Part shown: piece after piece, positions 881-55,013 of the stretch
Layout: the number at the start of each line of letters is the position of its first letter
Position numbering within the stretch: the stretch's first letter is position 1
NCBI GenBank assembly: GCA_032718475.1
Contig: JAUCBJ010000765.1
Span: forward strand, 1-64,000
DNA: 64,000 bases
From: Nemertoderma westbladi
Taxonomy: Eukaryota; Animalia; Xenacoelomorpha
Direction of reading: 5' to 3'
Position numbers and translations under genes: made by a program
The notes under the pieces: model-generated
Told to the model about the DNA's origin: nothing
Seen by the model: the letters and a program-made list of their open reading frames with translations, nothing else
Database searches by the model: none

Positions 881-2995
881 TGATAAACAACCGCGACCTC
901 TATACTAACAGCAGAACTGTTGAACAGACCAATACCCGTTAATATTCTTCTGCCAACCTAATGAGCTCTCGCCTAACCAATAAGACACAAAGACTGCTCT
1001 ACTGTTAAGTAAAGGGGCTCAGGAGCGTGATATTACTAAATTGTAAGGGTTGCTAAATACAAAACCGCTACTTACCGTTAGATGGCGCTAATCTGCCGTC
1101 CGCTAATATATTTTACTAATTTTACACAACTCCTGCAAAATCGCTTGTTCCTTTCTCTACCGATTGCTCAATAGAGAGCTAACTGTTCGAATCTATGAGC
1201 CACGCGGGAATAACCAAAACAATAAACCCGAGTCGGCTCCCTAAGCTTACTTGAGACGAGTGCGAGAGGCTTTGCACTCAGAGTATTCTTACGCCTAATT
1301 CTATCACTTATTAAAGCACGCTATTACCTACGTCTTTTCTAATCGCGAATACTGGGGGTTCTCTAACGTAATGTGTGAATGCGAGAATATTTAAATATCA
1401 AAATGGTACAGTATTTGTCTCTCGTGGATAGTACCGCTCTGGGTCTAAACTTGCCTGCAGCTGGCTTTAGGCCAGCAAATCACTAGCGTTTCGTGCGTAC
1501 CGAATAGTGCGTTCTAGCTGATTGCCCGCTAATGCAAATAACCGCTCAGCGTGAATAGTTTACAGTACTCTAATTATTACTTTAGCTACTCTCCGCTATG
1601 CTGCGTACTAATTCTTAATTTTTACTAATCAATTACAGTCACAAATATTGAACAGCGTACTAATTACTAAGAGTTCCAGAATACGTAATTCTAATTTATC
1701 ACGCAACAGGTTTCGCTAGTAATAGCCTAAATTGCCGTATTACTTTGACCTAATCAGTAACTAATTGTTGTAACTAAGAAATAGAAATCAATCAAAGAGA
1801 AAAGAGCGCCTACCTAAACATTCACAATCATAGGCACACTTCAGTAACACACCAATCAGCGTCAGCAATCACAGTTCGCAATTATGCAGTTAACTACTGT
1901 ATAACCCACAATTATGCGATTCACTACTCGTACTCTACACTCAACGTTCGAAACGTTGTGATACGTGCAGGCCTCTCCCGGGTACATATAGGACTCCTAA
2001 CTAACCTGATTCCTGCCCCCCTAATACTAAATAGAGACGAAACCTGGATCATCAGCCCCCTAATTACTGTACCAGCGATAGGTCTGCATACCACATCGTT
2101 AACTTCCCGACCGCAACGGTGGCCCCCGCCAGCGTTGCTCGCCCTTGAATCCTCCGCTCTCCCTTCGTCGCTAACCCCCCGATGTGCCCACTGCCCACTG
2201 GCGCCTTAGCCCTCCATTACGCTAATAGCTACCGTAGCGGCGCATGCAAATCACAAAGTCTGACAGTCTCAGAAATCCCTTAGGATTATTGCGCAGAAAA
2301 GGATCACATAGAACCATTAATCAAAAGGTAGAAATCATAGTTCAGTTGTAATCAGCAGTAATCGAAGGAATTAATTGAGAAACACAAGCAAGAGTAATCG
2401 CACTAGCAAATCATTTCAAGAAAATTAATCAAATTGCAGAAATACACTAAAATATCCGTCAAAAAAATGAATAGAGACAGCTCAGCAAGTACAACAGCAG
2501 TGCAGGTCATGTGAGGTGTAACAGGGGTTGATTAAGGCTCTACCGGCACACCGCCAATTTATAGGTGATCCGGATGGGGTGATGCAATAGGGTGACTCAA
2601 TCGCTCTCCTATTGGCTCTCCAGTCCGCGCTAGCATTAGACCAACCTGGAAGCAGTTAATCCAATAAGGAGGCCGGATTGTAGCCCTATTGCCTGCCCAA
2701 ACCTCAAATTATTACCATATATGGTAATGGTTCACGTCCCTGGCTGCTGAATGGCCATAGGACAGCGTCCCTATATGCTAGCCCTATTGATGCTAATATC
2801 AGCAAGCACAAAATCCAGGGTCCGAATAAACTCGCTACCCTGGAACTATCTACATATATCCTAATACAAAATTACGTAGGTAGGGCTACATACTATACAA
2901 AATGGATGGATTCAAATATATGGGTGTTTCGATTTCCCTATCTAAATACTACTGCGTTATTATGCCTTATCTAAAATATCATGCTGCACAATGGA
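881..2995 (-). repeat. Element A 3' LTR, main part (continues at 14955-15063 after nested element B)
   Basis: Near-identical to 29682-31794; I counted about 5 substitutions and one 2-bp indel by eye. Confidence 0.97.
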
Positions 2996-4267
2996 TGTAA
3001 AAGCTTCTGTGGGATATAACTGGCCCCTTTGCTTCGCAATCCAGTTTCCCCCCAGGCGCTGGAATACTCTAAAAAAGGTTCTCTAACTGTATATATATTC
3101 CCCTCGCCCGCAAGGTACCGTTACAGGTGTTTTAACGGACATAAAAGTCATTCTGCTATATACGTGTTTTAGCGGACATGGTAAGGCAAAAAACCCGCAA
3201 TACGGCAAATACTTTTACACAGCTTAGCCGTGATGATTCAGATTACGACATCTAACAGCTGGTTGCTTAAATGGAAACAGCCATTGGACGCATGGTTCTT
3301 TGTTTGGCTTCAGCCAATCAGAGCGATTCTCTCTGTCGATGTGGAGCTTTGAGCCGATCATACTGGGATTGTTCAGTCTTACAGTTTTTTACTGATACTT
3401 TGTTGTTATTGCTGTCTAAGCCAGAAACAACGGCTCTAGAAAGAAACATTAGTAGGCTTAAGATTATAGAGCGTATGACTGTTATCGGTTCATAACAACT
3501 CACATATCGGTCCATATCAGTGCATATCGCTGTACATATCTGTTCATATCATATCTTAACCTACCGTCTTAATGTTTTACTGTTGTCATATCTTATATCA
3601 GTGGATTGAATATTATTTGGAGAACATTTATAAAGAACCCAAATTTCCCAATTTTCTTGATACACTACAGGTTAGAGAGGCGGGTTATATATATAGCGAT
3701 TGCGACTTATATTATTGTGGTGTGTATTGAATTTAATGCTATTTGATAAACCCTACATGAGTCCGTTGCTATTCTCTTTATATATGATAAAATTCATTGA
3801 CGGTCGGCAAATTAGTGAGCAGTATTGTACGTTACCGGTAGTGTGCATGATTGTGGCTGATAACTAAGCATTTCCTAAAGAATGCGCCTCATACGTGAAT
3901 CATAAGCCTTACCGACTTACCGTTGTGATTAGTATAAGTCATATCTCTGTTTACTTAGATAGAGCGCCACGTCCTAAAAGGAACTGTTAATATTTCCCGA
4001 AAGTGAATAATATTAGTCAGAAATTAATTATTAACGATCAATCAAATAATACAATACCGTAAGCTTCACTGCAATAATAATCTAAGCCGACAGAATCCAG
4101 CCTCCCGGGATTATCCAGCGGGTGAATGGACGCGCACTAGGCTGGCTTCTGCTAATGTTGTGTTTATTGGTATTAAATATTTGTCATCTTCTAAAGTATA
4201 TTTATAAATCAAAAGACATATAAATTTTGGCAGGTTAAACTGCTAAAGGTCTTCAAAAGCGCGTACA
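2996..4267 (+). repeat. Element B 5' LTR (1272 bp)
   Basis: Direct repeat of 13678-14949; about 3 substitutions seen by eye. Confidence 0.97.
3475..3485 (+). promoter_or_regulatory. Putative self-primer 11-mer in B LTR (ATGACTGTTAT)
   Basis: Exact reverse complement of 4268-4278 (ATAACAGTCAT), the first 11 nt after the 5' LTR. Confidence 0.75.
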
Positions 4268-4278
4268 ATAACAGTCAT
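4268..4278 (+). promoter_or_regulatory. Non-tRNA primer-binding site of element B
   Basis: Abuts LTR end; lacks TGG; complementary to 3475-3485; followed by hairpin ACTTTATTGC-agtaa-GCAATAAAGT (4281-4305). Confidence 0.75.
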
Positions 4279-4333
4279 TGACTTTATTGCAGTAAGCAAT
4301 AAAGTTGAAAGTACCGGTCAACCGGTAAACCTG

Positions 4334-4460
4334 AACCGGTACTTCTGTAGGTCAGTAGGCCCAACTGCCAGAACCGGTACTGCTGTAGGTCCGTAGGTCC
4401 AACTGTCAGAACCGGTACTTCTGTAGGTCCGTAGGCCCAACTGTCCTAACCGGTACTTCC
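4334..4460 (+). repeat. About 38-bp tandem repeat (about 3.3 copies) in B leader
   Basis: AACCGGTACTTCTGTAGGTCCGTAGGCCCAACTGTCAG-like units. Confidence 0.85.
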
Positions 4461-4639
4461 AGTATAAGTACATTAGTATTATTCGATTTTGATTATTGTA
4501 TACCGGTAGGTATCGATATTAAATCGGGGACGCCTGGTTTTTATTGGGATTTTACTTAGGTCTATTTCTGTCAGTTTTATTTCCTAGTAAGTTAATATTG
4601 AGCTGAAGACGTGTAAGTCTGCTCAGATTGTTCAGATAA

Positions 4640-5215
4640 TTGTAGGCCGGACTGTTGTTAGATTGTTGTTGAGTTTGGAGAGATTATGGCGTATGTAGAG
4701 TTTGTCTGATAGAGTGCCAGTTAGTAAGTTGGGGCAGCCATAGCTGTAGGGTCAATCCCCTCTTAAAGAATAAGTCGTACTACCGTGTTAGAACGCATAC
4801 TAACTAACTATTTCAGAATCTGCATATACTGTAGTTTATTTAGGCTTGATCGTAGTCTGCCAGCGTTTTAGCCTGTGTTTGTTTGTGTGGTCTGTTCAGG
4901 TACCGTAATAGTTATTACTCAGATATTTTGTAGGCTGGATTGTTGTCTAGCTATTATTAGGTCTGAAGAGATTGCTGCTTGTGTAGAGTTTGTCTGATAA
5001 AGTGCCAGTTAGTAAGTTGGGGTAGTCATAACTGTAAGGTCAATCCCCTCTTAAAGAATAAGTCGTACTACCGTGTTAGAACGCATACTAACTAACCGTT
5101 TTGGAATCTGCACATACAGTAGTTTATTTAGGCTTGGTGGTAGTCTGCCAGCGTTTGGTTTGTATTTTGTTTGAGTATTCTGTACGGGTAGCGTAATATT
5201 TATTATTCAGAGTTT
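4640..5215 (+). repeat. About 290-bp tandem duplication in B 5' leader
   Basis: GTAGAGTTTGTCTGAT...GTCAATCCCCTCTTAAAGAATAAGTCGTACTACC occurs twice (about 4695 and 4983); single copy in element C (about 55360-55590). Confidence 0.85.
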
Positions 5216-6539
5216 ATGCGATTATTCGCAACATTCATGTCCCCAAGTTTATTCCTACAGTAATTGTGTTTGTTATACATACCGTTATAGTTAAATTAAC
5301 CCCGGTACTACACGGGCTGCTTGGCGTAGGACAAGACTGGTGACTTTGTGCTCTGGTCACTCCAGCAGATGCCGTGGTTCTTTTAACTGTTCAAGTATAT
5401 TTAACTACTGATTATTTGTTGTACCAGTACTTGTACCTAATTTAGGGTTTAGTGTACAGTGCTTTCCGAGGTAATTAGTGTGTAGGCAGTATATTTGTGT
5501 TGTAAAGTGGTTAATAGGCACGCTGGATCTGGTAGTCCGCGGTAATTAACTTCTAGGTAGGAACACTCCGTAATACATAACGTAGTACCTATAGCGATAC
5601 GGTTATAGGTCGTCAGGCGGTGGTATTTTCCTATCTGGACAACGCAGTGTATTTACTACTACTTATTATTTTCAAATACCGTAGTACCCTGTCCGTTGTA
5701 ATAACCAGAATTCTAACCCTTTGTTAGGCTGGTTTGTAGACTTCCTGTAAAATTACCCTAAAATTTCGTACGTAATATTTTTGTGGTGTTTAATTAGAGA
5801 TTTAATCTCAACCATATCGTAAGTAATTTGTAGTATTAAGTAACTTAGGTAAATTAGAATTATCAGTTTTAGTGTCAAATAAATAGCACTTCACGGAGAG
5901 CGCACAGCTTCTGTGTAGTGACTCCCCCAGAAATAATAACACCTATTTCAATATTGTAACAAAAACCCCTTTTTAACGGGTATATATCTATTATAAATCA
6001 ACTCAAACGATTTATAAATAGTAGGCCTGCCATACAACAACTAGGTCTCAATATCAGTTGGACTACTGCTTGAATAACGGTAATAAAGTAAGTTAAAGTA
6101 ACCAAGTAACCCTAAAATATTCAGAAATTCAATTATTCTAAAATAATTGACATACCGGTATTTACCATAGGCTTATTATATTTATTTCTATAAATTTGTG
6201 CTGAAATCATACCGGTATTCTGTAATTAATTCTAGTCTGTAATAATTATACTTATATATACTATAAGTGTCAGCTGTATACCGGTATTCACGATAGGCCT
6301 ATTATATATTTATATATATTTGTGCTAAAATTATATACCGGTACTCTGTGACAAATCTAGTCTGTAATAATACTTATATATATACTATAAGCATACCGGT
6401 ATTCTAATATATTATATATATATCACGCTACACTGAGTAGCAGTATCGGTAATTAATTTTTAGGCTAACGGTGATACTGAATTACTAGACTTACTTTGAC
6501 TGTATTTATAGCCGTAGGCATTCAACTGTGTAAACAAAC

Positions 6540-9500
6540 ATGTCAGATGCAACCCAATCACTGTCAGATAGTCTCTTAGAAAGTGTTAGAATGAGTATTA
6601 GACTTAGACAGCGTATTAAAAGGATCTGTGACCAAGATCAAAGTATAGAACATCCCAGATCCAAGTCTAAGTCACCTACTATTGTAAGAAAGGCCACCCC
6701 TACAGTAGTAGTGTCAGACCCTAGGCTAGTAGAACAGCGTAGGTCTATCATCGGCACTTGGGCCCAAGTCAAGCGGGATCAAGAAGCAGCTGTCAAACCG
6801 CAGCAACATCCTAGCCAAGAACCTAGTTCTCAGCGGCCCGATAGCTCCAGTAGTTCGGATACTGCTGAGCGGACACCCGAACGCGGAGCGAAGATGGCGG
6901 ATACGGTTTATGATGAGCGGCCAACCTATGAAGAATCAGCCGACGCCACTTCTTCTCAGGTGGAAAGCAAAGTGGAAAGCGAATTAACAGCAGCAGAGAA
7001 GCCGCGAACTAGAGACGCCATTGACATCTATCTGTCAGACTATCAGCGATTCATAGGAGATGAAGAGTTGAGGAGACGACTGTCTGGACTTCGCCCTAAT
7101 AGTGAAGGAACCAAGCTTGTGTTGGACGCAATCGATGCGGAAATGTTAGCTGCAGAACAAGCTAAATTTGATGAAAAACTCCGCCTCGTTAGATTTCAAG
7201 AAGAACAAATAAAGAAAAAACAGATAGAGAACCGAAAGGCAGCAGCAGTAAAGGCGGCAGAAGCAGAAGCAGCAAAGGCGGCGGCAGAAGTAGAAGCCGA
7301 AAGAAAGGCAGCAGAAGTAGAAGCAAAAAGAAAGGCAGCGGTAGCAGAAGCAGAAAGAAAGGCGGCAGCGGCAATGGCAAAGGCAGTGGCAGAAGCAGAA
7401 CGGAGAGCGTCTGAGGAGATTGCCCAACTGGAGTTGGAAAATCTGCAAGAGACGCAGGACGGCATAAATAGACGGTTAACTGCTAATCAAATGCGGATGA
7501 TGAGTCGATCTACTCCCAAGCGCCAAGGATACACATCATCGGAGGAAGGCGAGACCACCGATCCTGAGGGCGGAGGAAATAGATCTCGTCTAAGCAGGCG
7601 TAGAAAAACATCTCACCGTCATAAACTGCCTGATTTGCCCCCAGCTGTCAGAAGACAACTAGCTAGCACAGACTTAGGTAGTACAGAACCCACAGAACAA
7701 ATTATTCAGGTCACAAGACTCCCTACAATAGTTGATGAGCCTGAAATAATTAGGCCTGTCGTTCCCAAAGCCACTCCTGTGCTAGAGACCCCTGTACTTC
7801 CAGAGCTTAACTCTAAATTCCCTCTACACAGTACTACACTGCCTGTACCCGGTGGAACAGTCCAAGAGAATATCCCTGTCCAGATAGCAGAGAGAGAAAT
7901 CAAAAATTTGTCTCCCGTCGTCCCGCGTCAGCCCGCTACTATGTTGGCGACTCCCGCTTCGGCGGTTGAGTGGGTGGAAGAGGGATGGCGGGGGATGAAT
8001 CTCCTGCTAGGACAGATGCAGGAGACTGTCCACCAACTTAAGGGAACAGTGAGGGAAGGTAGAGCAGAGTTGCAAGAAGTGCAGCAAAGTATCGCGCTAG
8101 AACGCGACAAATTAGTCAATATACAAAAGGGCATACCAATACCCCCTGTAACATTGTGTCAACCTGTTAGGTCTGAAGTATTACATGCGCAAGGTGTGGA
8201 GCCTACACGCATCTATACTGCTAGTGAAGTTGAAACTCCTATAGCAAACCCTATTAAGGGTGATTATAGACCTGTTATTAATGATATTCCCTATAGACCT
8301 GATAATGATCCGAGAAATTTATATACCGATAATTTGATATTAAATAACACGATGGCCCAAGAAAGCTTTACGCGTCAGATGGCTAGAACAGAAGCCCGCC
8401 AAGCGGTCAAAGTGGGAGAGATCGTCAAATTCAATGGAGATGAGATGAAATGGTTACCTTTCAACGAATATTACAAAGATAGCATACAGAACTCTGTACT
8501 ATCTAACGGAGAGAAACTTAGATTCCTCATCAAGTGCTTGGAAGGACCTCCCAAGTTAATGGCGTTAAAGTTTATTGGACATCCAGATGGATTAAGACAA
8601 GTTTGGGATACACTAAACATCAGGTATGGTAACAAGGATAACATAGCTAAGTATTTGTATGCAAAATTAGTAGCCCCCCGACACTTCCTTAGTAGCGGGA
8701 TTATAGAGTTTTCCGATGAAATTCAAGAGATCTGTAGACAACTGGACTGGTTAGGTAAGTCGCATGAATATCAGAGTTCCATGGTTATTGGAGCCGTAGT
8801 CTCTACTTTACCAAAGGGTGGAGTATGTACACGTTGGGACAAGAAAGTGTTGTACATGAATGAACAACAACGACGAAGCCCTACCATGACTGATCTCATG
8901 TCCTTCTTAGATGGTGAAGTAAAACTACAACTCATCAAGCAGTCCAGAGAGAAAACATCGGAAAATAAGGTAAGTGAGAAACCTGCTTCTAGGAGAAGAG
9001 TAACACCGGTGTGTTACACTGACGACGGCGAAGGCCAAGCTTCTCAAGAAGAGGACAGCGGGAAAGACACAGCAAAATCTTACTATGACAACAAGACCTA
9101 TAAAGACGTAAGTAAATACAAGTCTCGAATCAGTGACAGGAGAGAACAGGTAACAACAACTCCTCCTACGTCTCCTAAGAGAATTCACGGAAGAAAGCCC
9201 GAGGAGGGAACGAGGGTGCATAACGTTACCCAAGGTAAGGTGAGTGGCATCAGGCCAAAATGTGCGCTGTGCGACGGGCCCCACCGTTTGAGTGCGTGTG
9301 CTGAATTTCTAAAGAAATCCCCTGTAGACAGACGTACAGTCCTGTGGAATAAGCGGTTATGCTATAATTGCCTCAGATCAGGACACCAACGGCGAACCTG
9401 TTACTCCGACGTAAAGTGTGCAAAGTGTGGCGCGAAACATCACATCTTGTTACACAGTGAGTTCGAACGAGACAACCCGAGTCAGGTAAGTGAGCCCGAA

Positions 9501-10694
9501 CTACATGTCCAATTCAGTGATGTAAATGACACTGATCAAGAGTCTGAGATGGAAGGATTCTATACTGACGAATTCTCCGACGCCAACGAATCCTGTTACC
9601 TAATAAATACCTCAGTGTATCGAGCACTTACTTATGAAAAGGACACCAACAATGAGTTTCCCCCAACTACTTTTGCCAAACAACCATCTTGGAAAGCTCC
9701 AACTTCCAACGTAGGAATCAGAGAATTTCCTGTAGTGCAGGTAAGAGTTCACGGTCCCAACAAAAGTTACATAGTGAACGCCCTCCTTGACTCCGGCAGC
9801 ACAGGAACATTCATCGATCAAGAACTAGCCGAAGATATCTTTGCTGGACAACTCAAATTCCAAACTAAGTTGAATATGTCCGGAATTATGCAGGTTTGGA
9901 AATCTACCATAACGGCAGATTACTATGTAGGTGCGTTGTCCACCCCCCAGGATAAATTAGGAGCACAAAGTATAAGGTCAGTAAAAATGGTGGCTATAAA
10001 GAACTTCGCTACTACCCAAGCAGACCTTTATAATTGGGACGAGGATGAGAGCATCCAACATCTTAAGATACCTCGATTCCAGACAGATTATCCTGGAGTG
10101 CAAATACTCATCGGCCAAAACGCGCATGAGGCGCTCGAGACATTGGAGAAACGGCCTGCTCAACCGCAGCCATTACAAACCTATGCGGTAAGAACTAGAG
10201 TAGGTTGGTACTTCACTGGCCCTTCCCGTAGAACTCTCAAAGAGAGATTACCTCAACAACAGGTATACCAAGTAAAGGAATGGGAAGTGGAGAGCAGTGA
10301 TGTGGGCGATCCAACTGAGGGAACACCATACTCCTCAGATAATGACGATATTAACTCCAATGTAGATCAATGGAGACATTGCCTTGGGACGATTAATCCA
10401 GCCGACATCGCTTCCAGAGGAGCAACTCCTCAAGAACGGATAGATACTCCAGGCTGGTTAGGTGGATCCGACTTCTTAAGTAAAGAAGAAGAAGAATGGC
10501 CTCCTCATCTTACCACGGCGGAGGTTAGACAGGCCAAGGGAGCGGAGAAAGTAACACAACAACTCAATCGCCCAGCTAGTCGTTTATGTTTACTGGAAAG
10601 AGACCAAAAACTGTCCGGAAACTATGGAAGGCAAGATACTCTTCCTACAACCACTTCCCTAATCCGACAAATATCTAGGGACTCCATAACGTAA
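6540..10694 (+). CDS. gag: BEL/Pao Gag-protease polyprotein (1384 aa) with RT, RNase H core and integrase core deleted
   Basis: Ala/Glu coiled coil; capsid-like KFNGDEMKWLPF (DUF1759-type); knuckles CALCDGPHRLSAC, CYNCLRSGHQRRTC, CAKCGAKHHILLH; protease ALLDSGS; only remnants QWRHCLGTINPADIASRG and LNRPASRLCLLE of pol. Confidence 0.93.
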   Translation: MSDATQSLSDSLLESVRMSIRLRQRIKRICDQDQSIEHPRSKSKSPTIVRKATPTVVVSDPRLVEQRRSIIGTWAQVKRDQEAAVKPQQHPSQEPSSQRPDSSSSSDTAERTPERGAKMADTVYDERPTYEESADATSSQVESKVESELTAAEKPRTRDAIDIYLSDYQRFIGDEELRRRLSGLRPNSEGTKLVLDAIDAEMLAAEQAKFDEKLRLVRFQEEQIKKKQIENRKAAAVKAAEAEAAKAAAEVEAERKAAEVEAKRKAAVAEAERKAAAAMAKAVAEAERRASEEIAQLELENLQETQDGINRRLTANQMRMMSRSTPKRQGYTSSEEGETTDPEGGGNRSRLSRRRKTSHRHKLPDLPPAVRRQLASTDLGSTEPTEQIIQVTRLPTIVDEPEIIRPVVPKATPVLETPVLPELNSKFPLHSTTLPVPGGTVQENIPVQIAEREIKNLSPVVPRQPATMLATPASAVEWVEEGWRGMNLLLGQMQETVHQLKGTVREGRAELQEVQQSIALERDKLVNIQKGIPIPPVTLCQPVRSEVLHAQGVEPTRIYTASEVETPIANPIKGDYRPVINDIPYRPDNDPRNLYTDNLILNNTMAQESFTRQMARTEARQAVKVGEIVKFNGDEMKWLPFNEYYKDSIQNSVLSNGEKLRFLIKCLEGPPKLMALKFIGHPDGLRQVWDTLNIRYGNKDNIAKYLYAKLVAPRHFLSSGIIEFSDEIQEICRQLDWLGKSHEYQSSMVIGAVVSTLPKGGVCTRWDKKVLYMNEQQRRSPTMTDLMSFLDGEVKLQLIKQSREKTSENKVSEKPASRRRVTPVCYTDDGEGQASQEEDSGKDTAKSYYDNKTYKDVSKYKSRISDRREQVTTTPPTSPKRIHGRKPEEGTRVHNVTQGKVSGIRPKCALCDGPHRLSACAEFLKKSPVDRRTVLWNKRLCYNCLRSGHQRRTCYSDVKCAKCGAKHHILLHSEFERDNPSQVSEPELHVQFSDVNDTDQESEMEGFYTDEFSDANESCYLINTSVYRALTYEKDTNNEFPPTTFAKQPSWKAPTSNVGIREFPVVQVRVHGPNKSYIVNALLDSGSTGTFIDQELAEDIFAGQLKFQTKLNMSGIMQVWKSTITADYYVGALSTPQDKLGAQSIRSVKMVAIKNFATTQADLYNWDEDESIQHLKIPRFQTDYPGVQILIGQNAHEALETLEKRPAQPQPLQTYAVRTRVGWYFTGPSRRTLKERLPQQQVYQVKEWEVESSDVGDPTEGTPYSSDNDDINSNVDQWRHCLGTINPADIASRGATPQERIDTPGWLGGSDFLSKEEEEWPPHLTTAEVRQAKGAEKVTQQLNRPASRLCLLERDQKLSGNYGRQDTLPTTTSLIRQISRDSIT

Positions 10695-12320
10695 TAACAT
10701 ATGGAGTGGGCGTGTGGCTATATCATTTTATATTTGTTTTTATTTTATATTTATGTATGTATTATTATGTAATTTTATTATAATCGTTTTCTTTAATTTT
10801 ATTTAGTAGAATGTTCTTTTAGTGATTATTTAGTAGATTAGTGCAATATATTAGTGTTTATTACGTACGTAATTACTTATAATATATTTAGTGCGACGGC
10901 GAGAAATAATTATTTTTTCTCTTTCCTTACTGTCCGTATCATATTATAAATACGTGACTACAGTAAGATGAAATGTCCGTACTTATTAAAGTACAATAAA
11001 GCCACTACTATATTCAAGTATTATTGGTAGGCAGAGTATTAGGAATGCAAAGTTCAGATCCTCGTGTCTCGGCTAAACCAAGCTCTGGGTAGACCTTGGA
11101 AACGACTTGCCTCTTCACACTGACATTGCTTCGTGCGATATTGCTCTTCTACCTTATAACAAATAATACATATAGTAGCGTGATGTCCCTCTAACAGTAG
11201 CGTAAAACGCAAATAAATCTGTTAAACCTTTTGACCATCTGTAATTCTAGTCGATTAAGATATCGCGGCACCCACCGATATACTTGAAAGACAAATTCTA
11301 GAATCAGTGGTTAACGTCCCCAGACAAGTTCTGGAATAAATCGGTGCCCATCTTAAATATTAATTTAATATTTATTAAAATCTGTAAAATTCAGATCTCT
11401 TAAATTTCTAGTCAATTAAGATATCGCAGCACTTACCGATACTCTTAAAAGACAATTTTCATAGAATTAAGGATCCTATGTCCCCAGACCTGCTCTGGAA
11501 TCAAATTGTGTCAATTTTAACATCAAATAATAAAATTCATGGGAATAAATTTAAATTCATATTTTAAATGAATTTCATAAATTGTCGTTTTATGCAATTT
11601 ATAACATTCCCAAAATTCCATTAATTAATAGATCATGGGAGCGGAGATTCATCCTATTGAGTGTATTGGCGTGCGAGAATCTCCGACATATAGTCAATAG
11701 CCGATAAAATTAATAAAATCATGCATAAAGAGGATATTGACAATTCAAGAATTATTATTAAATAGCATCCCAGATCTGTATGCATGAGAATTACCCTAAT
11801 TCTACCGCTAGCTTTCCATAATGTCACCATAGCAACACCCACGCTAGAATTAGAAGCAAGTTAAAAGAACAATAGAAAGCTTGTCCCATTGCATGGCATA
11901 GAGAATATAGCACACTGTTAGTATCCAAGGATACACAGTAATAACGTGACATTCTGGAAGGCACTGACTAACGGACAAATGGCCTGTATGTGTACAATTG
12001 GTGACAGTTGTGTGGAATTTGTGCGTTTGTAGGTGAATGTTACTGCTAAGGTGTGTTTACAGTAGCTAGTCGCAATTGTGAAAGTAACCCAACTCTCCTA
12101 TAGAAAGAACCTAAAGTGGATTCAAGCCTTTGGGACGGACAGTGGAGTGACTTGTGCCGGTTATCGTTGTCGTACTGTTGCTACATGTTGGCGTAAACAC
12201 CGCGACAACGGTACATCGGCGCTGAGGATCCCACTGTCCGGGGGCAAAGAGAGGTAGGCAGCGACGTCCGCTCGCCTAAACATAAACTCATTTCGATATT
12301 AACAAACTCAGATAGCAGAT

Positions 12321-13599
12321 ATGACGGAGTTGATAGAAGATGATCTTGGTATCAGGGAGCGATATACTCTACCTTTACAAGCATTTGTGGATAGCTTGAT
12401 ACGCGGTGAAACCGATCCAACCATTACGGAGGACGATGGTCGTTATATCGAACCGCCGACGTCCCAAGAGCAACTTACGCGTGAATTGGACTATCGAAAA
12501 TTCACCACTCGCTATACGAATCGTAATGGTACGTATATGGACTTCCTAACTACCAGCCATCCTATCGATTTACATGATACGGACGATGTAGACACCGAAA
12601 GGGACATGGTTCTATTTAAATATCATACCCAGCGGCGTCGTAACGATAAACCGAGAATAGATCACGAAAATTCTATTCGTAACAGACTGGGAAGACGAAC
12701 CAATATGCCTAGAATCTGAGGAGATTCAGCCTATCGCACTCGGAACAGCGACAACGATTACATCCTGGAATGGTATCAAGGTCCACTGCGTACGATTATC
12801 GCCATGCCAACTATGTTTCTCGGTAACGTTGTCGGTTATGCGCATCGAGAGACCATGTTACGCCCATGGACACAAACGTCCGCTGTTCCTATTTCCACGA
12901 ACAACTGGCGATGGAAATTTATTGCGCGTATTGCAGATTTAATAATTTGCATATTTTTGCGGTTTGCCCTCAATTTATGACTCAATGTCACCATTGTCAA
13001 CTAAAGGGACACGCCAGTTTCGATTGCCCTTTTAATCGCGATTTGGAAAGCGTAGATGAAATGATCACACTACGTTACATTAGAGCTTGGGAAGCGAAGG
13101 CTGATTTACATCGTGATTCGCGCCATCGCTATTATCCTGGACGCGCTTACGAAGGAATTTATGCGTTCCATCCTTATCTATTCGCTTCTGTCGAACAGAA
13201 ATCACGCATATCGAGTTACAGGAAGTATATCGACGGCCTTACGAATACCGAGCCCGTGAACGCGAGTTGGAAAGGACCATTAAACCCCGGAGGTTTCTAG
13301 CTGCCTATAGTCCACCCACGGCCCTCGTTCAGACCACTCGTAAAGGACCCATAAGAGCGGCTGTCTTAAAACGCGCTCTCAAAGCCGTTAGACCCCTCTC
13401 CCCCGACGTTGATATCAATCAACCCGGCACTTCGACTGGTGGATACACCGACCATAATTCTACACCCTCTGATGCAATCATATTGCACCCTTCACCCAGG
13501 AGTTATAACCCTCCTTGTAAAGTGGCTCGCCCCAAAGAGAAAAGGACTCTGGCTAGCTTTAAAAAACTGCGTAAACGCCGTCCGCGCAAGAAAGACTAA
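12321..13599 (+). pseudogene. Truncated/disrupted ORF3 homolog of element B (CCHC knuckles plus conserved C-terminal domain, no exonuclease)
   Basis: RCRLCASRDH (after in-frame TAA 12824-12826), CAYCRFNNLHIFAVC, CHHCQLKGHASFDC and AWEAKADLH..RYYPGRAYEGIYAFHP align to A ORF3 RCKLCGSTRH...CGYCGVKGHRSARC...KWEGVADYH..RWLPFKAGYGFWAVDP; split over three ORFs. Confidence 0.8.
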
Positions 13600-13667
13600 C
13601 CGTTTAGAGTATTTACGTATATTAGAAACTGTGATTTTGTATATTTCATAGACTCAAATCCCATTTT

Positions 13668-13677
13668 CTGGGAGCGG
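13668..13677 (+). promoter_or_regulatory. Short PPT-like site of B (CTGGGAGCGG)
   Basis: Directly precedes 3' LTR TGT; shares GGAGCGG with A's PPT. Confidence 0.7.
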
Positions 13678-14949
13678 TGTAAAAGCTTCTGTGGGATATA
13701 ACTGGCCCCTTTGCTTCGCAATCCAGTTTCCCCCCAGGCGCTGGAATACTCTAAAAAAGGTTCTCTAACTGTATATATATTCCCCTCGCCCGCAAGGTAC
13801 CATTACAGGTGTTTTAACGGACATAAAAGTCATTCTGCTATATACGTGTTTTAGCGGACATGGTAAGGCAAAAAACCCGCAATACGGCAAATACTTTTAC
13901 ACAGCTTAGCCGTGATGATTCAGATTACGACATCTAACAGCTGGTTGCTTAAATGGAAACAGCCATTGGACGCATGGTTCTTTGTTTGGCTTCAGCCAAT
14001 CAGAGCGATTCTCTCTGTCGATGTGGAGCTTTGAGCCGATCATACTGGGATTGTTCAGTCTTACAGTTTTTTACTGATACTTTGTTGTTATTGCTGTCTA
14101 AGCCAGAAACAACGGCTCTAGAAAGAAACATTAGTAGGCTTAAGATTATAGAGCGTATGACTGTTATCGGTTCATAACAACTCACATATCGGTCAATATC
14201 AGTGCATATCGCTGTACATATCTGTTCATATCATATCTTAACCTACCGTCTTAATGTTTTACTGTTGTCATATCTTATATCAGTGGATTGAATATTATTT
14301 GGAGAACATTTATAAAGAACCCAAATTTCCCAATTTTCTTGATACACTACAGGTTAGAGAGGCGGGTTATATATATAGCGATTGCGACTTATATTATTGT
14401 GGTGTGTATTGAATTTAATGCTATTTGATAAACCCTACATGAGTCCGTTGCTATTCTCTTTATATATGATAAAATTCATTGACGGTCGGCAAATTAGTGA
14501 GCAGTATTGTACGTTACCGGTAGTGTGCATGATTGTGGCTGATAACTAAGCATTTCCTAAAGAATGCGCCTCATACGTGAATCATAAGCCTTACCGACTT
14601 ACCGTTGTGATTAGTATAAGTCATATCTCTGTTTACTTAGATAGAGCGCCACGTCCTAAAAGGAACTGTTAATATTTCCCGAAAGTGAATAATATTAGTC
14701 AGAAATTAATTATTAACGATCAATCGAATAATACAATACCGTAAGCTTCACTGCAATAATAATCTAAGCCGACAGAATCCAGCCTCCCGGGATTATCCAG
14801 CGGGTGAATGGACGCGCACTAGGCTGGCTTCTGCTAATGTTGTGTTTATTGGTATTAAATATTTGTCATCTTCTAAAGTATATTTATAAATCAAAAGACA
14901 TATAAATTTTGGCAGGTTAAACTGCTAAAGGTCTTCAAAAGCGCGTACA
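13678..14949 (+). repeat. Element B 3' LTR
   Basis: Direct repeat of 2996-4267. Confidence 0.97.
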
Positions 14950-14954
14950 ATGGA

Positions 14955-15063
14955 CTAATATTACGTACAGTATAACGGACTAATATTGCATACTGCATAA
15001 CGGACTAATATTGCATACTGCATGATGACTAATAATATGGATACAGCGCCATATACCGTAACA
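14955..15063 (-). repeat. Element A 3' LTR, U3-start segment
   Basis: Matches 31795-31903; includes 25-bp subrepeats GGACTAATATTGCATACTGCATAAC. Confidence 0.95.
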
Positions 15064-15556: not shown

Positions 15557-18500
15557 TTATCGACCCGCTCCTGGGTTCTTTGGGCTCGCTCCTCTCTTCC
15601 GCCCCCTTCCCAGATACACTAATCTACCTCCAGTCGACTCCGTTGATGGCGTCCGTGAGGCGTCACTCCCCGGAACCGGCGACGACGTTCCCTGAGCCCC
15701 GACAGACTCCCGGCTTGTACTTCTTCCTCGGCCTCGTCCCAATTGTCGCGCTCCCGTGGTCGCTTCCGCCAACTCTTCCTTATGCAGTTGCGCTCGCGCC
15801 TTCTCCGACGCTCCCTGCGCCTTACGCTGCAACCGTTGTGCTTCTATAATCGAATGATAGTGATCGTCCTTGACTTGACGCTTGTCTTGGACCCCTCCTC
15901 CTGGTTCTTTCCGCGAGCCTTGAGCTCCAGCGGTCGTCGCTGTGGTCGCTGCGATCCTTTGCTCCTGTATCCTCTCAGCGGTCAATGAACCCACTGGCAC
16001 ATGAGTCAACAAGAATTCGTTGCGGTATTGTATAGCCGCCATCCTCCAATCACCTCGCGCGCGTACCACTTTTCTAGTCTCCGTAAATACACCCTTCGTG
16101 ATGCGATCGCAAATAGCAACGAAGTTCCATGTGTACTTATTGTCCATGTTCAATTGTCTGAAGTACTCTCGAACTACGATAACTCCAGTGTTCTGTGGAA
16201 GGTCTTGAGCAGTTAGGATGAGCTCCTGATATTGTGGTAGCGATTGTAGATATGGCTCGTACGCAACATGCGATGGGTCTACCGCCCAAAACCCATATCC
16301 CGCTTTAAATGGTAACCAACGCATCTGCGCTTGAATATGGTAATCGGCCACACCCTCCCACTTATCTAACATCTCCCGAAGTAGGTTAGCGCTATGGTTT
16401 TGAAAGGAATCATCTCGCAGCTGACATCTCGCGCTACGATGTCCCTTTACCCCACAATATCCACATTGAGAAATGAAGACGGTGCACGTGTGAAACGAAT
16501 GGTCGGTCTCATTACACCAACGACAGACCTTATGCGCCGCCTCTACTACCGCGTCGCACGACTTTAGATTGTGCCTTGTGCTGCCGCACAATTTGCACCT
16601 ATGCGCTTGTGGAAACCAGGCCCTCTCGTATATGAGGTCTCCAATCGGTTTCGCACTTCCTTCCTTCCCAATGTCTAATACGATGTCGTCCTCTCCGGTC
16701 AACGGTTGTCGATCCGGAACAAAGTAAACATCCTCGCCCTTGTCCTCTATCTCCAATATTTCCTCCCGCGTTCGTTTCGGATATGTCTTCTCCACCGGAA
16801 GATCTACTCCGAACACCTCTACTAACGTCTCCGGCCAGCCCTCCTTAACAGGTCTATCAGCCTCCGAGTGGAAGGGAGTACCAAACCCGCGGGTTTGATT
16901 CCCGAACCACTTCTCCAAAGCTTCTGGCGTCGGATACTCCATCGACGGTCGGTCTCCCAAATCTCCGATGTTCTGTCGATATACTCCTTGGAATATCGCT
17001 AATCCTCTCCTAACCATCGACGTATTCTCTAACGATTGGTTGAAGAACGGGGTTAAGAAACGCTTCATCACGTCGGATTGGATTCCCCCTTTCGAGCGAA
17101 CGTATTGATCTCCTCCGAATACCAATGGATGACGCTTCAAAACTCGCGCAACGATATCCGCTAATAAACAAGTCACCGTGTTTGACTCAAGCACCAAATA
17201 ATATTGTAGCGACGCACGGGGTGGCGCGCAAATGTTCCAATACACTAACGCTTGCCGCTTGAAGTGGGATTTGAACTCCGCTCCCGGTGGCGTGTTGTAT
17301 TCACCATACACCTCCTCGTACTTCTTCTGCGTCTTTAACTTAAAGTCCCAATTATACAACAAGTGTGCTATAAAGCCCATACCAGTCTTGGCAGAGTTGG
17401 GATACTCCCTATAAATTCCAATATCCTGTGCCCATAGCAACAATAGCTTGGTGTCGACAAACGGTCTCGGCAATCTATCTTCCAGATCAGTCATGGCGTT
17501 GAAGTCGCTCTCCAAATCGCTCTGGACTCCCGATCCCACCTTGACGTAATCTTGGTTGAGAATAGCCTCTCTAACTTTCTTGGGTAACATCCTGGCGTCG
17601 ATACGCTCCGCTCCGTGCATACCTCCTCGCCTGCATACCTCCAAAATCTGTTCCCTAGGATCCTTCCCCTTCCGATATTGTGTCGTTATGATGGGCTCCG
17701 GTCTCTCTCGATCCGCCCTCACACGCATAAACACATGAGTCACACCATCGGCCGCACGAATTTGAATACACTTGCTGGTCAAACATTCCTGATGGGACCC
17801 TCCTTCATTGTCGTAGAACATCACCCTCCAATCCTGCAGTGATTCCTCCGTTTTCCTCCACTGACGCTGAATCTCGTCTGATGGGGTCCACATGCGCTCG
17901 ATAGCCTTGTGGTCATCATATCGGGTATAAGAACCCTTCCTCCTCAGCCACGTCTGGTCTACCTCCTCGTCGTCTGGGAATGTAGCCACCGCGACCCATA
18001 CCTTGATGTACTTATCCAACCATCCGAATAGCTTACTCTCCTTCCCCGGAGCTCCAATCTTATCCAATGTGTCGTAATCTGTGATCTGCATTGGGACATC
18101 ACGCAAGAACTTCGCGCATAAAACTTCCCGTAGACAGTCAACGTTCCAATGGTCCGCCATTCTTACCATCGGCAAGAATCGTATCGCTTCTCGCGACTCC
18201 GGATGATCTACTAATATCACAGGTTCGGTGCCGTCGGAATAATACACCGGTCCGGGTTGAGATACGACCTGTGGAACAAATCCGGTCACTCTCCTCGTCT
18301 CCTCTTGATGTCTATCCGCGGTCTTATTATACTCCGGTATCCTGTTCTCAAATAACTCTTTCGCCTTCGCCGCTCGCTCCTCTTGCCGCAACGAGTCTAT
18401 GTCGTCCTGATGCTCAGGCGTGAGGCTTCTCGCTCGGTGAGGTGAAGTAAACGTAGTCCAGGGACTCGAGAGCTCCAAACCCGCGGGTTTGGTACCCGAG

Positions 18501-19297
18501 TCCCGCGCCGCTTCGCGCCGCGCCTCTAGATCCTTGTAGGCTCGGTACAGCGAAATGGCCGCTGCCGTCTCTATCAAACTGGGTGTCAAACAGGGTTTAA
18601 TCTCCGTATACGGATCTAATGTCGTAACGGTCGGCGTAATAGGTCTCGGAGGTCGCTTTCCGCTGAAGTCGATACTGATCATCGGGTTGCTCATCGGGTA
18701 ACCTCCCTCGTTGTATCTAAGGAATTGGTGAGCTGGACATCGCGTTAATATCGGTTCTGGATGTTGCTCGTCTAATCGGTCGGGAATCGCTACGTCCTGT
18801 TTATTCATGCATTCACCACACTTGTAGAAGAGCTTGTATACGCTGAAGACTTTCGGCGTCTCCTGATCCTCGCCTCGAGTCCTCCGGTACAGATGCATTC
18901 CGTCGAACTGGTCTCGGACTGCAGGTAGAGGCTCCTCATGTCGTAAATACATATTCATATGGTATAGTCGTGCGATTTCCTCGTCCGGATCTGCGCTAAT
19001 GTCGCACACGTCCAAAGCGAAGTCGTAGGGATACCGCGTGCGATACTCTCTCCGCAAAACTTCCATCCGGTCCCCCAACGCTCTCATTCTTTCCCTCCGT
19101 AATTCTTTATCATAACTTGGCTTGTATTTCCCGTTTAGCTCCATCACGGACCGCCCATGGTAGTAAACGTTAGAGTCTTTATATCCCGGTCGCGCGAATG
19201 GTAACTCCGCCTCCTCTCTGGCATTAAATCCTCTGCGCGGTTGCGCTCTAATATCCCTCTTCATTATGCCTCGCGTATATACATATATATATCCCAA
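15557..19297 (-). CDS. Element A ORF3 (1246 aa): DEDDy/WRN-EXD-like 3'-5' exonuclease domain plus three CCHC zinc knuckles
   Basis: ExoI MFYDNE; ExoII LPKKVREAILNQDYVKVGSGVQSD; FVDT; GMGFIAHLL; ExoIII-like QYYLVLE (about 17170-17830); knuckles CKLCGSTRHNLKSC, CRWCNETDHSFHTC, CGYCGVKGHRSARC (about 16420-16600); no signal peptide or TM segment. Confidence 0.8.
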   Translation of the reverse strand: MGYIYVYTRGIMKRDIRAQPRRGFNAREEAELPFARPGYKDSNVYYHGRSVMELNGKYKPSYDKELRRERMRALGDRMEVLRREYRTRYPYDFALDVCDISADPDEEIARLYHMNMYLRHEEPLPAVRDQFDGMHLYRRTRGEDQETPKVFSVYKLFYKCGECMNKQDVAIPDRLDEQHPEPILTRCPAHQFLRYNEGGYPMSNPMISIDFSGKRPPRPITPTVTTLDPYTEIKPCLTPSLIETAAAISLYRAYKDLEARREAARDSGTKPAGLELSSPWTTFTSPHRARSLTPEHQDDIDSLRQEERAAKAKELFENRIPEYNKTADRHQEETRRVTGFVPQVVSQPGPVYYSDGTEPVILVDHPESREAIRFLPMVRMADHWNVDCLREVLCAKFLRDVPMQITDYDTLDKIGAPGKESKLFGWLDKYIKVWVAVATFPDDEEVDQTWLRRKGSYTRYDDHKAIERMWTPSDEIQRQWRKTEESLQDWRVMFYDNEGGSHQECLTSKCIQIRAADGVTHVFMRVRADRERPEPIITTQYRKGKDPREQILEVCRRGGMHGAERIDARMLPKKVREAILNQDYVKVGSGVQSDLESDFNAMTDLEDRLPRPFVDTKLLLLWAQDIGIYREYPNSAKTGMGFIAHLLYNWDFKLKTQKKYEEVYGEYNTPPGAEFKSHFKRQALVYWNICAPPRASLQYYLVLESNTVTCLLADIVARVLKRHPLVFGGDQYVRSKGGIQSDVMKRFLTPFFNQSLENTSMVRRGLAIFQGVYRQNIGDLGDRPSMEYPTPEALEKWFGNQTRGFGTPFHSEADRPVKEGWPETLVEVFGVDLPVEKTYPKRTREEILEIEDKGEDVYFVPDRQPLTGEDDIVLDIGKEGSAKPIGDLIYERAWFPQAHRCKLCGSTRHNLKSCDAVVEAAHKVCRWCNETDHSFHTCTVFISQCGYCGVKGHRSARCQLRDDSFQNHSANLLREMLDKWEGVADYHIQAQMRWLPFKAGYGFWAVDPSHVAYEPYLQSLPQYQELILTAQDLPQNTGVIVVREYFRQLNMDNKYTWNFVAICDRITKGVFTETRKVVRARGDWRMAAIQYRNEFLLTHVPVGSLTAERIQEQRIAATTATTAGAQGSRKEPGGGVQDKRQVKDDHYHSIIEAQRLQRKAQGASEKARAQLHKEELAEATTGARQLGRGRGRSTSRESVGAQGTSSPVPGSDASRTPSTESTGGRLVYLGRGRKRGASPKNPGAGR

Positions 19298-20036
19298 TAA
19301 GTGCCGTTACGTAACCAATTACACTGTGGGTGAATCAGTTAGATGTCGCCGAAGGACAGACCTCCCGAACCCCCCCCCCCCCCCCCCCCCCCGCCTTCCA
19401 GCAGTTCAGGTTCGACTCTCTAGATCCCGTCTCTTCCTAACTAACTATCCTCTAACCTATTCCCATGCATAGCGCAAAAACTTTGGAGATAAACTGGCCA
19501 TGACCAACTCACTTTTTGATGCCCAAACTACTCCCATTACTCGTACTAAACTACAGTAGTTAGAAAGGACCATAGCCACAATACTCGACTATACCAAACC
19601 CACAGGTTTGATAATCGAACATCACACATCCTGCAAACTACTGAGTGGGGTCCATGTACGCCTCTGGTGCTACTAACCTTTAGCACCTTAGTTGCACTGT
19701 TGGCACCAATCTGTGGAAGTTGCTAAACTCAATTTACACTCCTACGTAATATAGCCGTCACCATGGTTTCTAAATGCTATTTTCCAGGCTTCACGACTTT
19801 TCAAATTACTGTTTATCTATAGACAAATTCTAAAACGCGTCTATACACAGCGTCTGGAATTGTCTTGGGTTCACTTTTCTAATTTTAAAATTTTAAATTT
19901 TCCAAAATTTTAAAAATAAAATTTTGTTTTGATACCCACCAGACAAAACTCAACGCAAATCACCACAACCCCGCTCCTATGCATTTCCTTGTAATTTGCA
20001 TACGAGGAATGCATACAAAGTGAGTTGCGTCCAACA

Positions 20037-22130
20037 CTAACTCTGTTTTGAGGCAGGAGACAAATCATAATCTCCCGTCTCGATACGTGTCTCCTCTAAT
20101 AACACAATATCTTGGACCGGTCGGTCCAAGGTGTGTAAACCATTAGTTTTACACTTTTTTGGGTGTGGACACTTGCACCTAATTATCACAGTGACTGTGC
20201 GCACTATGTTTTGCACGTCTGGGTGTGTGTGCAAGATCACTCCCGTCTCCCAATACTTTCTCTTGACAATGGGTTCGGTTATCAAGACGTAATCTCCCCT
20301 TTGGAGACTCCGAACCGTTTTGTACCACTTTGTTCTGGTAGATATGGTGGGAAGATAGTATTCCCGCCAATATTCCCAGAATGTGTACGCCACAAACTGT
20401 GTCACTTTCCAGCTTTTACGACTATATAGGTCGGCACTAATGGGTTCTGATGCCGGCACAAGAAATGCTGGACTCTGCATTAGCAAATGATTCGGCGTTA
20501 ATGCAACACCGTCTGGCAACATAGCTATCGGCCTCGAGTTTAGGGTATGCTCGATTTCAATGAAAGCTGTGACCAGTTCGTCGTCGGTAAGTTGTTTGTT
20601 TACAGGCAACGTCTTGGCAATGGCCTGCTTTACAGAGCGAACTAAACGCTCCCAACTTCCTCCTCTCCAAGGACTTTCTGGAGTATTGAATCTCCACTCT
20701 ACTCTTTGCGGCAAAAGTGCTGCAGAAATTTCCTTATTCTGTGCCGCTTTATGAGCCGCGTTCAACTCGCTATTCCCTCCGACAAAGTTTGTACCCTTAT
20801 CAGAGTAGAACGCCTTTACTAGTCCTCTCCTGGCCATAAATCTCTTTAAGGCCAGGAGCAGAGATTTGGTCGACATGTCTGCCACACGCTCGATATGTAT
20901 GGCTCTACTCGCCATGCATGTCAGTAGCAGGCCCCATCGCTTGTGGGTCAGCCGTCCACTCTTTGCTTCAATCGGACCAAAACAATCCACCCCTGTGTTC
21001 GTAAAGGGTGGGTCATATGCCTGCACTCTCGCTTCCGGGAGTTCAGCCATCTCCTGTTCCAATACTCTAGCGTTCACTCTCTTGCAAACCAGACAGGCGT
21101 CGTACATAGTGCCGACTGCCCTGCTTGGCTGCAATAGAATGAATCGTTGTCTCGCTGCCGACAAACAGTGTAACTTTCCCGCGTGATGCAACCTCTTGTG
21201 TATATCCCATAGAATCGCTCTTTGCAATTCTATCGGGTGACTAGGGATTATCACTGGGAACCGAAACTGTGAATTTATGTCGACAGTCTGGATTCTCGAT
21301 CTATGACAAATCAAACCCTTATGGATTAATGGACTCCATTTTCTAAGGGGTTTATAGAGAACTGGTCGTTGAGCCGATAATAGATGGAATTCTTTGGGGA
21401 AGGCACACATTTGATAATGTTTCAAATGCTTTAATTCCGCTTGATCAATCTCATCCTCTGTCAGAGGTTGTTTCAATTTCCGAATTCGCTCACTATTGGT
21501 GCTCAATGGTTCTCTCAAATGTTTCGAATGTTTTAAACAAAGGTACGAAATGTATCGGCTTAGCCACGCAGTTCTTTTACAAATTGTCAGCCAAGAGGCA
21601 GACGAATTTAGTAATTTGTCATAAACACTGCATGACTCTAATGCCAGCGACGGTTGTCCGCTAACTAATGGAAGTTTCGAATCCAAACCCGCAGGTTTGG
21701 AAACCAAAGACTCCATTGTGTCGGTCATTTTCTGTCCGTCACTTACCAATTGTGACTCCGGTTTAGTCTGTAAGGGTGGTTTTATGTCATAACTTACCCT
21801 TCCGGACCTAGTAGTCACGTAAGTCTGTTGGTCTGACAGGTCTCCGGGCCGCTCCAATGACTCTTCAGGCCGCTCCAGTGACTCTTCAGGCCGCTCCAAT
21901 GACTTAAGTTTGGCTTTAGACTTTGACTTAGAGACTTTCTCCACCTTGACTTCTGCATCTTCAGGCATCGGATTGGTCACAATCTTTAGTCGCTCTGGCC
22001 AATGTTCCTGTGTCCTCGTTAGAAAATCAGGCCCATGCAACCAAAACTCCTGCGACTCTTCCTGACAGAATTCCGCCGGCATTGCACCTCTCGAAGTTAT
22101 GTCGGCCGGGTTCAACACTCCCGGACAATG
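20037..22130 (-). CDS. pol: Element A pol C-terminal part: RNase H tail/connection and integrase
   Basis: NPADITSRG; HHCC (HKRLHHAG...CLVC); DDE core GVDCFGP...SDKGTNF...WERLV; separated from RT by in-frame stops. Confidence 0.93.
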   Translation of the reverse strand, partial: HCPGVLNPADITSRGAMPAEFCQEESQEFWLHGPDFLTRTQEHWPERLKIVTNPMPEDAEVKVEKVSKSKSKAKLKSLERPEESLERPEESLERPGDLSDQQTYVTTRSGRVSYDIKPPLQTKPESQLVSDGQKMTDTMESLVSKPAGLDSKLPLVSGQPSLALESCSVYDKLLNSSASWLTICKRTAWLSRYISYLCLKHSKHLREPLSTNSERIRKLKQPLTEDEIDQAELKHLKHYQMCAFPKEFHLLSAQRPVLYKPLRKWSPLIHKGLICHRSRIQTVDINSQFRFPVIIPSHPIELQRAILWDIHKRLHHAGKLHCLSAARQRFILLQPSRAVGTMYDACLVCKRVNARVLEQEMAELPEARVQAYDPPFTNTGVDCFGPIEAKSGRLTHKRWGLLLTCMASRAIHIERVADMSTKSLLLALKRFMARRGLVKAFYSDKGTNFVGGNSELNAAHKAAQNKEISAALLPQRVEWRFNTPESPWRGGSWERLVRSVKQAIAKTLPVNKQLTDDELVTAFIEIEHTLNSRPIAMLPDGVALTPNHLLMQSPAFLVPASEPISADLYSRKSWKVTQFVAYTFWEYWREYYLPTISTRTKWYKTVRSLQRGDYVLITEPIVKRKYWETGVILHTHPDVQNIVRTVTVIIRCKCPHPKKCKTNGLHTLDRPVQDIVLLEETRIETGDYDLSPASKQS

Positions 22131-29670: not shown

Positions 29671-29681
29671 ACACGTATCAC
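29671..29681 (-). promoter_or_regulatory. Non-tRNA primer-binding site of element A (GTGATACGTGT on minus strand)
   Basis: Abuts 5' LTR; complementary to minus-strand GCACGTATCAC at 30769-30759 (10 WC pairs plus one G-U). Confidence 0.75.
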
Positions 29682-54357: not shown

Positions 54358-55013
54358 TTATTAATGGTTATATGTTGATGGATATGTTGTTATATTTGGA
54401 GAATATCGATAAATAATCATAAAACCCCCCAATCTTCTTGATTACTAAAGGTTAGAGGGACCGGTTACCGGTAGCAATTGCGACTTACATTACAGTGGTT
54501 TTAGTGTGCATTAAATGCTATTTCATAATCCCTACATGTGTCAGTTGCTATCCTCCTTATATATGATCAAATTCAGTGACGGTCGGCAGATCAGTGTGAA
54601 ACAGTGTGAAGTCGTGTGTAGTAGTGTGACAGATAATAAAGCATCTCCTAAAGAATGCGCTATTTACGAAAATCAGTAGCCATCTCGTTGTGTTTAGTAT
54701 AAGTCATAACTCTGTTTATACTTAAAGCGCCACATCCTAAAGGAACTGTTAATATTTCCCCGAAAGTGAATAATATTGTCAGAGATTATATAGTAACGAT
54801 CAATCGAATAATACAGTAGGTCTGCAACGCAATAAGGTCAAAGCATCCGAATCCAGTCTCCCTTAACTGTGGGGGAATGATCGCGCATAGACTGGCTTCG
54901 GCTAATGTTACTTCATGTGCATTAAATAATTGTTATAGGCTAAAGTCGATTTATAAACAAGAGGACACCTAAAATTGGCAGGTTAAACTGCTAAAGGTCT
55001 GAAAGGGCGAACA

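Follow-up and report, generated by a model that had tools for sequence, protein, structure and literature searches.

The window, that is the whole 64,000-nt stretch of DNA analysed here, contains nested LTR elements in animal DNA. All three elements, designated A, B and C, were identified as BEL/Pao by Pfam domains, in agreement with the original prediction. B spans positions 2996-14949 and its two LTRs (2996-4267 and 13678-14949) show 3 differences in 1272; the element is flanked by a 5-bp target duplication (2991-2995/14950-14954) and is inserted within the 3' LTR of the minus-strand element A. The insertion breaks this LTR of A into two parts, 881-2995 and 14950-15063. The target duplication of A is located at 876-880/31904-31908, and A has a length of about 19 kb once B is excluded. 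C, at approximately 52789-61324, is related to B at 80%; its single LTR contains a MITE, and its 3' end is truncated. Because the window holds no 3' LTR of C, the end of the C LTR was fixed by homology with B. TG...CA LTRs with target duplication and polypurine tract were found in both A and B, and C is single-LTR.

2996..4267, plus strand: 5' LTR of B (TG...CA, 1272 nt), from the LTR pair
13678..14949, plus strand: 3' LTR of B, from the LTR pair; second copy of the candidate primer stretch (see below) at 14157-14167
13669..13677, plus strand: polypurine tract-like end of B, common to A, from sequence
29682..31903, minus strand: 5' LTR of A (2222 nt), from the LTR pair; TATAAA at ~31364, 596 nt upstream of the candidate primer stretch
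881..15063, minus strand: 3' LTR of A, divided by B, from the LTR pair
52789..55013, plus strand: 5' LTR of C, start approximate, end from homology with B, MITE at 53491-54360 inside

The MITE at 53491-54360 has terminal inverted repeats and TTA at both flanks, and we take it to be PIF/Harbinger-like. The sequence that follows the break of C (~61324) and runs to 62711, in which a GIY-YIG ORF accompanies decayed RT-like remains, is probably a Penelope-like element. Elsewhere in the window, a single open frame of 649 aa at 45227-47176 is choline transporter-like (PF04515) and intron-free over that stretch, and a tandem repeat with a unit of ~32 nt occupies the window end (63477-63989).

The coding regions of A and B are as follows.

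6534..10694, plus strand: Gag-protease ORF of B (DUF1759, CCHC knuckles)
24191..28402, minus strand: Gag-protease ORF of A (DUF1759)
20037..24299, minus strand: pol of A (RT, Peptidase_A17/RNase H region, integrase, DUF5641)
15557..19306, minus strand: extra ORF of A, 1249 aa with CCHC knuckles, downstream of pol

PF03564 was matched in A, B and C, with Cys-His knuckles visible in the translations. The pol of A, which two in-frame stops disrupt within 22290-22130, matched PF05380, PF17921 (under its curated cut-off) and PF18701, and retrieved 148 homologues at E<=1e-20, the majority carrying PF05380. Within the window pol is absent from B and C; the Gag-protease ORF of B terminates in a short piece resembling the distal pol of A, and B is without RT. 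The assignment of A, B and C to the family follows from these proteins and not from the PBS. The extra ORF of A had no Pfam or PDB match and one homologue only, with a predicted structure of pLDDT 33; a DEDDy-type 3'-5' exonuclease domain is possible from its sequence (Atlas 0.84), a result taken as a lead only. A decayed piece of an ORF of this type is retained in B at 12797-13174. The available text of one study reports extra ORFs of such kind in rotifer LTR elements (PMC5408684).

Self-complementary PBS of A, B and C

The 11 nt adjoining the 5' LTR of B (4268-4278, ATAACAGTCAT) form a perfect reverse complement of 3475-3485, a match that begins at the very first base after the LTR. Corresponding sites were located in C and A.

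3475..3485, plus strand: candidate self-primer of B, reverse complement of its PBS
4268..4278, plus strand: non-tRNA PBS of B, adjoining the LTR
53280..53290, plus strand: candidate self-primer of C, position homologous to B
55014..55024, plus strand: non-tRNA PBS of C, 11-nt match to 53280-53290
30759..30768, minus strand: candidate self-primer of A, 10 nt, present again at 1958-1967 in the other LTR
29672..29681, minus strand: non-tRNA PBS of A, 10-nt match of 29681-29672 to 30768-30759
4280..4306, plus strand: hairpin right after the PBS of B, 11 bp, z -3.9
29637..29667, minus strand: hairpin right after the PBS of A, 14 bp including G-U pairs, z -4.2
55031..55055: hairpin after the PBS of C, z -2.1

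BEL/Pao elements are described by the ICTV as tRNA-primed, with an 18-nt PBS for tRNA-Arg or tRNA-Gly and with replication that is poorly understood (PMC8742986). The TGG expected of such a tRNA PBS was absent from the first 8 post-LTR bases of A, B and C, and no tRNA gene was found within the 64,000-nt window. The stretches of B and C occupy the same aligned position in the LTR and differ in 4 of 11 bases, every one of which is mirrored in the PBS.

The possibility of chance complementarity in long AT-rich LTRs was evaluated with dinucleotide shuffles of the LTR. The observed length was reached in 4 of 5000 shuffles for B (P 0.0008), 2 of 5000 for A, and 20 or 11 of 5000 for C with or without the MITE. 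Consistent with chance, the same length was reached elsewhere in the interiors of B (3 more positions; 9410 nt, 11 nt match) and A (24 more; 14618 nt, 10 nt match). Among the first 270 internal bases, equally good alternative starts numbered 0 in B, 3 in C and 3 in A, and such positions in A and C occur within 125 nt of the LTR. Against chance, P is 0.0004-0.004 per element at a position fixed beforehand, and the position is homologous in B and C; the survey described below refutes this explanation, which we consider to have a negligible probability.

The original prediction had claimed for B an exact 11-nt complement without TGG, which was confirmed by sequence match, and a register starting at the first base outside the LTR, which was likewise confirmed. 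Its low chance expectation was borne out by the shuffles. The claim that the same geometry recurs in C and A held for the 11 nt of C and for a different sequence in A, although the match in A is of 10 nt and not 11.

Several further features were seen around these sites. The leader of A repeats the LTR end and PBS (15 nt) at 29580-29594 on the minus strand, ~90 nt further in. A donor-like splice motif lies in the hairpin loop of B and two lie at the 3' end of the hairpin of A, a placement resembling that of the retroviral major splice donor. In A, a perfect donor motif is present 195 nt upstream of the LTR end; its use would skip the PBS.

Related elements and predicted introns within the LTR

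Relatives were retrieved with an alignment of the RT of A and 20 homologues, yielding 108 loci (80 metagenome loci, the best 80 of 516, and 28 genome-bin loci) in 82 nucleotide families. These relatives are metagenome contigs, and individual loci may mix copies. The 28 prokaryote-bin contigs (L081-L108) encode BEL/Pao RT, several with both LTRs, and are animal DNA inside prokaryote genome bins. No relative was present among the viral contigs searched. The LTR end was obtained from the two-LTR repeat in 21 loci, four of which were dropped: L029 and L106 belong to the same families as L030 and L006, the end of L106 being also damaged and its site affected by a deletion, and no clean boundary could be drawn for L080 and L093. 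For L049, L052, L067 and L103 the end was adjusted visually by a small number of bases. One rule was applied uniformly, allowing a spacer of 0-4 nt and a match either unbroken or across a strict GT-AG pair.

A match of 10-15 nt was found in 18 of 20 fixed-end elements, A, B and C included, versus 8 of 376 cross-pairs. Nine of these matching elements owe the match to reading from one exon end into the next over a predicted GT-AG intron within the LTR, and have none otherwise. The two elements without a match were L086, with a single mismatch across its intron as judged by eye, and L103, with a TGG-type PBS. In a blind scan of all loci, unsplit matches were noisy, with any hit in 59/108 versus 31/108 in the reversed control, and split matches were cleaner, at 35 versus 6; the fixed-end test is preferred because the reversed control is an inexact mirror. 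A further 18 loci chosen by eye from the blind scan added 15 families. Overall, the trait was observed in 30 related families (22 split, 7 unsplit and 1 both) from the best 80 of 516 metagenome loci and the 28 bin loci; in the remaining 52 of 82 families the trait was not demonstrated, many of the contigs having no readable LTR end.

The 30 families contain 28 different PBS sequences. The match length is 11 in 18 of them, the first two letters of the PBS are GT in 25, AT in 3 and AG in 2, and the spacer is 0-4 nt. Conceivably the duplex is instead conserved for a structural or regulatory role, in packaging, in dimerisation or as a splice or translation switch, with some other primer being used. 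The hairpins after the PBS of A, B and C are in line with such a role, as is the hairpin that replaces the PBS in fungal GalEa elements, for which the available text gives no known mechanism (PMC5445492). We consider this explanation improbable, however, since the duplex has the register expected of a primer: the distance to the LTR end is always 0-4 nt, the AC/AT end is fixed, and the commonest length is 11. Moreover, no alternative primer site is visible, and the hairpin is not general, reaching z <= -2 in only 2 of 21 relatives.

Priming by host tRNA fragments (half-molecules), with the LTR match incidental or a relic of primer capture, would accord with the tRNA priming ascribed to the family by the ICTV (PMC8742986) and with L003, in which TGG occurs one base past the LTR. 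A search for TGG-type PBS in 39 loci produced a single credible case, L103. Each of the 28 PBS sequences fits its own LTR, in 23 families over an exon junction, and cross-pairs do not. A host tRNA does not account for this diversity over 30 related families or for the paired changes on both sides in B and C, and the explanation is rated as very improbable.

A quick maximum-likelihood tree built from 63 RT/RNase H rows grouped every trait-bearing element in a single clade of 48 rows (SH-aLRT 97), four of whose locus rows carry no state, with L103, the sole tRNA-primed control with a readable PBS, located outside. Split and unsplit forms are interleaved within the tree. The exact place of A is unsure because it is on a long branch, and the host range of the protein hits prompts a guess that the elements belong to the Sinbad/Suzu (Sailor) branch.

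The predicted introns that were scored (n = 22) are 75-536 nt long with near-consensus donors and pyrimidine-rich acceptors, scores that are partly built in because the introns were selected with a splice-site filter. Independent of that filter is the finding that the 536-nt intron of L061 is precisely absent, from GT to AG, from the 3' LTR of L059 of the same family, although the contig may mix copies. Such exact absence is as expected after reverse transcription of a spliced RNA. A comparison of L084 with L087 revealed that the exon end and the PBS are altered together across the intron. In L055:520-830 and L061:137-672, two acceptors are compatible with one donor and the same primer is produced.

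An intron around the stretch of A, B or C was also considered and rejected, no bracketing donor/acceptor pair being as strong as those of the relatives; the GT immediately upstream of the stretch in B and C scored low or not at all. In the sequences of A, B and C the stretch is unsplit, probably as a result of intron loss.

Probable position in the transcript and predicted pairing of the stretch

The location of the stretch relative to promoter and poly(A) signals was compared among 19 LTRs. A TATA-like box is present upstream of the stretch in 7 of 19, the nearest at -49 to -596, and none of the 19 has a TATA 20-40 nt upstream. Downstream, 17 of the 19 LTRs contain a poly(A) hexamer, in L084 and L087 directly after the stretch. 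For B the candidate is the following.

4172..4177, plus strand: ATTAAA, candidate poly(A) signal by inferred function, 96 nt upstream of the LTR end

In C a candidate hexamer is located 93 nt upstream of the LTR end, and no canonical poly(A) hexamer was found in A. The lack of a TATA at -20 to -40 in any LTR argues against the geometry of Tf1. The positions of TATA and poly(A) signals, combined with the need of split forms for a first exon, would place the stretch inside R, unlike Tf1, and suggest that the primer is probably inside the transcript and not at the 5' end of the mRNA. A CCAAT box followed by a common GAGCGATT motif was observed at 3313-3326 in B, 53106-53120 in C and approximately 31416-31400 on the minus strand in A; the LTR of A is otherwise unrelated, and CCAAT and GAGCGATT probably belong to the promoter. 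Contigs from the one sequencing run found contained many diverged copies, none of them over 3446-3544, and within the LTR they offered neither ends nor GT-AG joints that could be used.

The stretch and the PBS are 780-1080 nt apart in A and B, and long-range RNA folding is an unreliable predictor. In the minimum free energy fold of 3440-4330 the two sites of B are not paired with each other. The pairing probability of the B duplex was 0.91-0.92 in 2 of 8 windows of folding and <=0.12 in the other 6, and that of the A duplex was <=0.01 in 3 of 3; the folding models give no robust preference for the duplex in A or B. For short-LTR relatives the probability was 0.89-0.99 in at least one of two windows in 5 of 6.

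These results bear on whether the primer could instead act in trans or be trimmed. In that case the RNA annealed to the PBS would be either the 3' end of a genomic RNA or a short transcript confined to an LTR (5', 3' or solo), and cutting or trimming would bring it back to the duplex end. The 0.8-1.1 kb between the sites of A and B, over which an intramolecular duplex is poorly predicted, would favour this route, as would the hexamer directly after the stretch in L084 and L087 and the weak 3'-5' exonuclease lead in the extra ORF of A. That lead is unconfirmed, however, and the cis duplex is strongly predicted for the short-LTR relatives. In addition, a spliced 3' copy would lose the intron, yet 23 of 30 families retain it. 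A primer supplied in trans or by trimming is regarded as unlikely, though the least so of the alternatives.

Proposed priming mechanism and comparison with known systems

An LTR-derived primer in some form is very likely. The best explanation, and one we regard as probable from the sequence comparisons, is self-priming with an internal, often splice-built, LTR-derived RNA instead of a tRNA. Transcription would start upstream of the stretch, placing it within R. In intron-bearing relatives splicing of the 5' copy would create the stretch, and in A, B and C it would be ready-made. The stretch would base-pair with the PBS and the 3' end of the duplex would probably be cut, after AC or AU, by the RNase H of the element, by analogy with Tf1, leaving a capped 5' fragment whose 3'-OH could serve as primer of minus-strand DNA. 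The spacer of 0-4 nt would be trimmed upon integration. The strong-stop DNA (~780 nt in B, 1080 in A) would then jump to the 3' R; because it would end at the cut, the 3' LTR copy would be the template for the stretch and for any intron. The intron would be kept if that copy is unspliced and lost if it is spliced, offering a route for persistence of the LTR intron. For RT, B and C would depend on an autonomous partner.

The fuller proposal is that in a large clade of aquatic-animal BEL/Pao elements the tRNA primer was replaced by a self-primer assembled by the spliceosome across an LTR intron, that splicing marks the 5' copy only and the intron is kept via the unspliced 3' LTR copy, and that A, B and C are intron-less products of a reverse-transcribed spliced copy. 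We favour this proposal modestly. The prediction of self-priming in a BEL lineage stands in its core, a self-complementary, co-varying PBS of non-tRNA type, and is modified in that the trait belongs to a wide clade rather than three families, is often split by an LTR intron, and involves a primer that is probably internal, unlike that of Tf1. Priming itself and its independence from Tf1 we infer from the sequences.

Titles and the beginnings of abstracts contained no description of BEL/Pao self-priming or of a spliced primer, a coverage outside which subscription papers and Repbase Reports lie, and the main texts of the Sinbad paper (PMC554778) and a mollusc survey (PMC6238403), in the parts available, mention neither PBS nor tRNA; the novelty of BEL/Pao self-priming is not secure. 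If a self-primer is used in BEL/Pao, tRNA-free priming of LTR elements would either have arisen there a second time or have survived from an old state, and a splice-built primer would couple reverse transcription to host RNA processing, a kind of link absent from the papers searched. Self-priming predicts exact RNA ends and junctions, accounts for the failure of PBS-based annotation to detect such elements, and provides a simple rule for locating their LTR ends. Such elements would presumably be beyond competition by tRNA fragments at the PBS.

Cer7 of C. elegans reportedly encodes its own tRNA-like primer, and Tf1 reportedly has a U5-IR-like stem as a supporting RNA structure next to the duplex. 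The three elements resemble Belpaoviridae in their TG...CA LTRs, 5-bp target duplications, Gag with DUF1759 and CCHC, PR-RT-RH-IN order, Peptidase_A17 and DUF5641. They differ from the ICTV description, which gives 0.2-1.2 kb for the LTRs and 4.2-10 kb for the genome (PMC8742986), in having no tRNA PBS, in LTRs of 1.3-2.2 kb and in the ~19 kb of A. As in the fungal GalEa Copia elements with a Conserved Hairpin Site, in the account available, a tRNA PBS is absent and a hairpin lies near the LTR end (PMC5445492). Unlike GalEa, for which that account reports no LTR complement found by its authors (PMC5445492), A, B and C have an exact complement, with a hairpin that follows the PBS and is largely confined to these three elements. 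There is also a likeness to Tf1/Tf2 of Schizosaccharomyces pombe, Tj1 and Tf1/sushi elements, which, in the available texts, also have no tRNA PBS and have ~11 post-LTR nt complementary to RNA of their own LTR. In those descriptions of Tf1, an RNase H cut after base 11 makes the primer, and no intron is mentioned in the parts available (PMC7175516, PMC4600332, PMC5341516). Unlike the Tf1/sushi elements, which are Ty3/gypsy, the domains and homologues of A, B and C are BEL/Pao and not those of a Gypsy-type RT; and unlike in Tf1, the stretch is probably internal to the transcript and is split by a predicted intron in most relatives.
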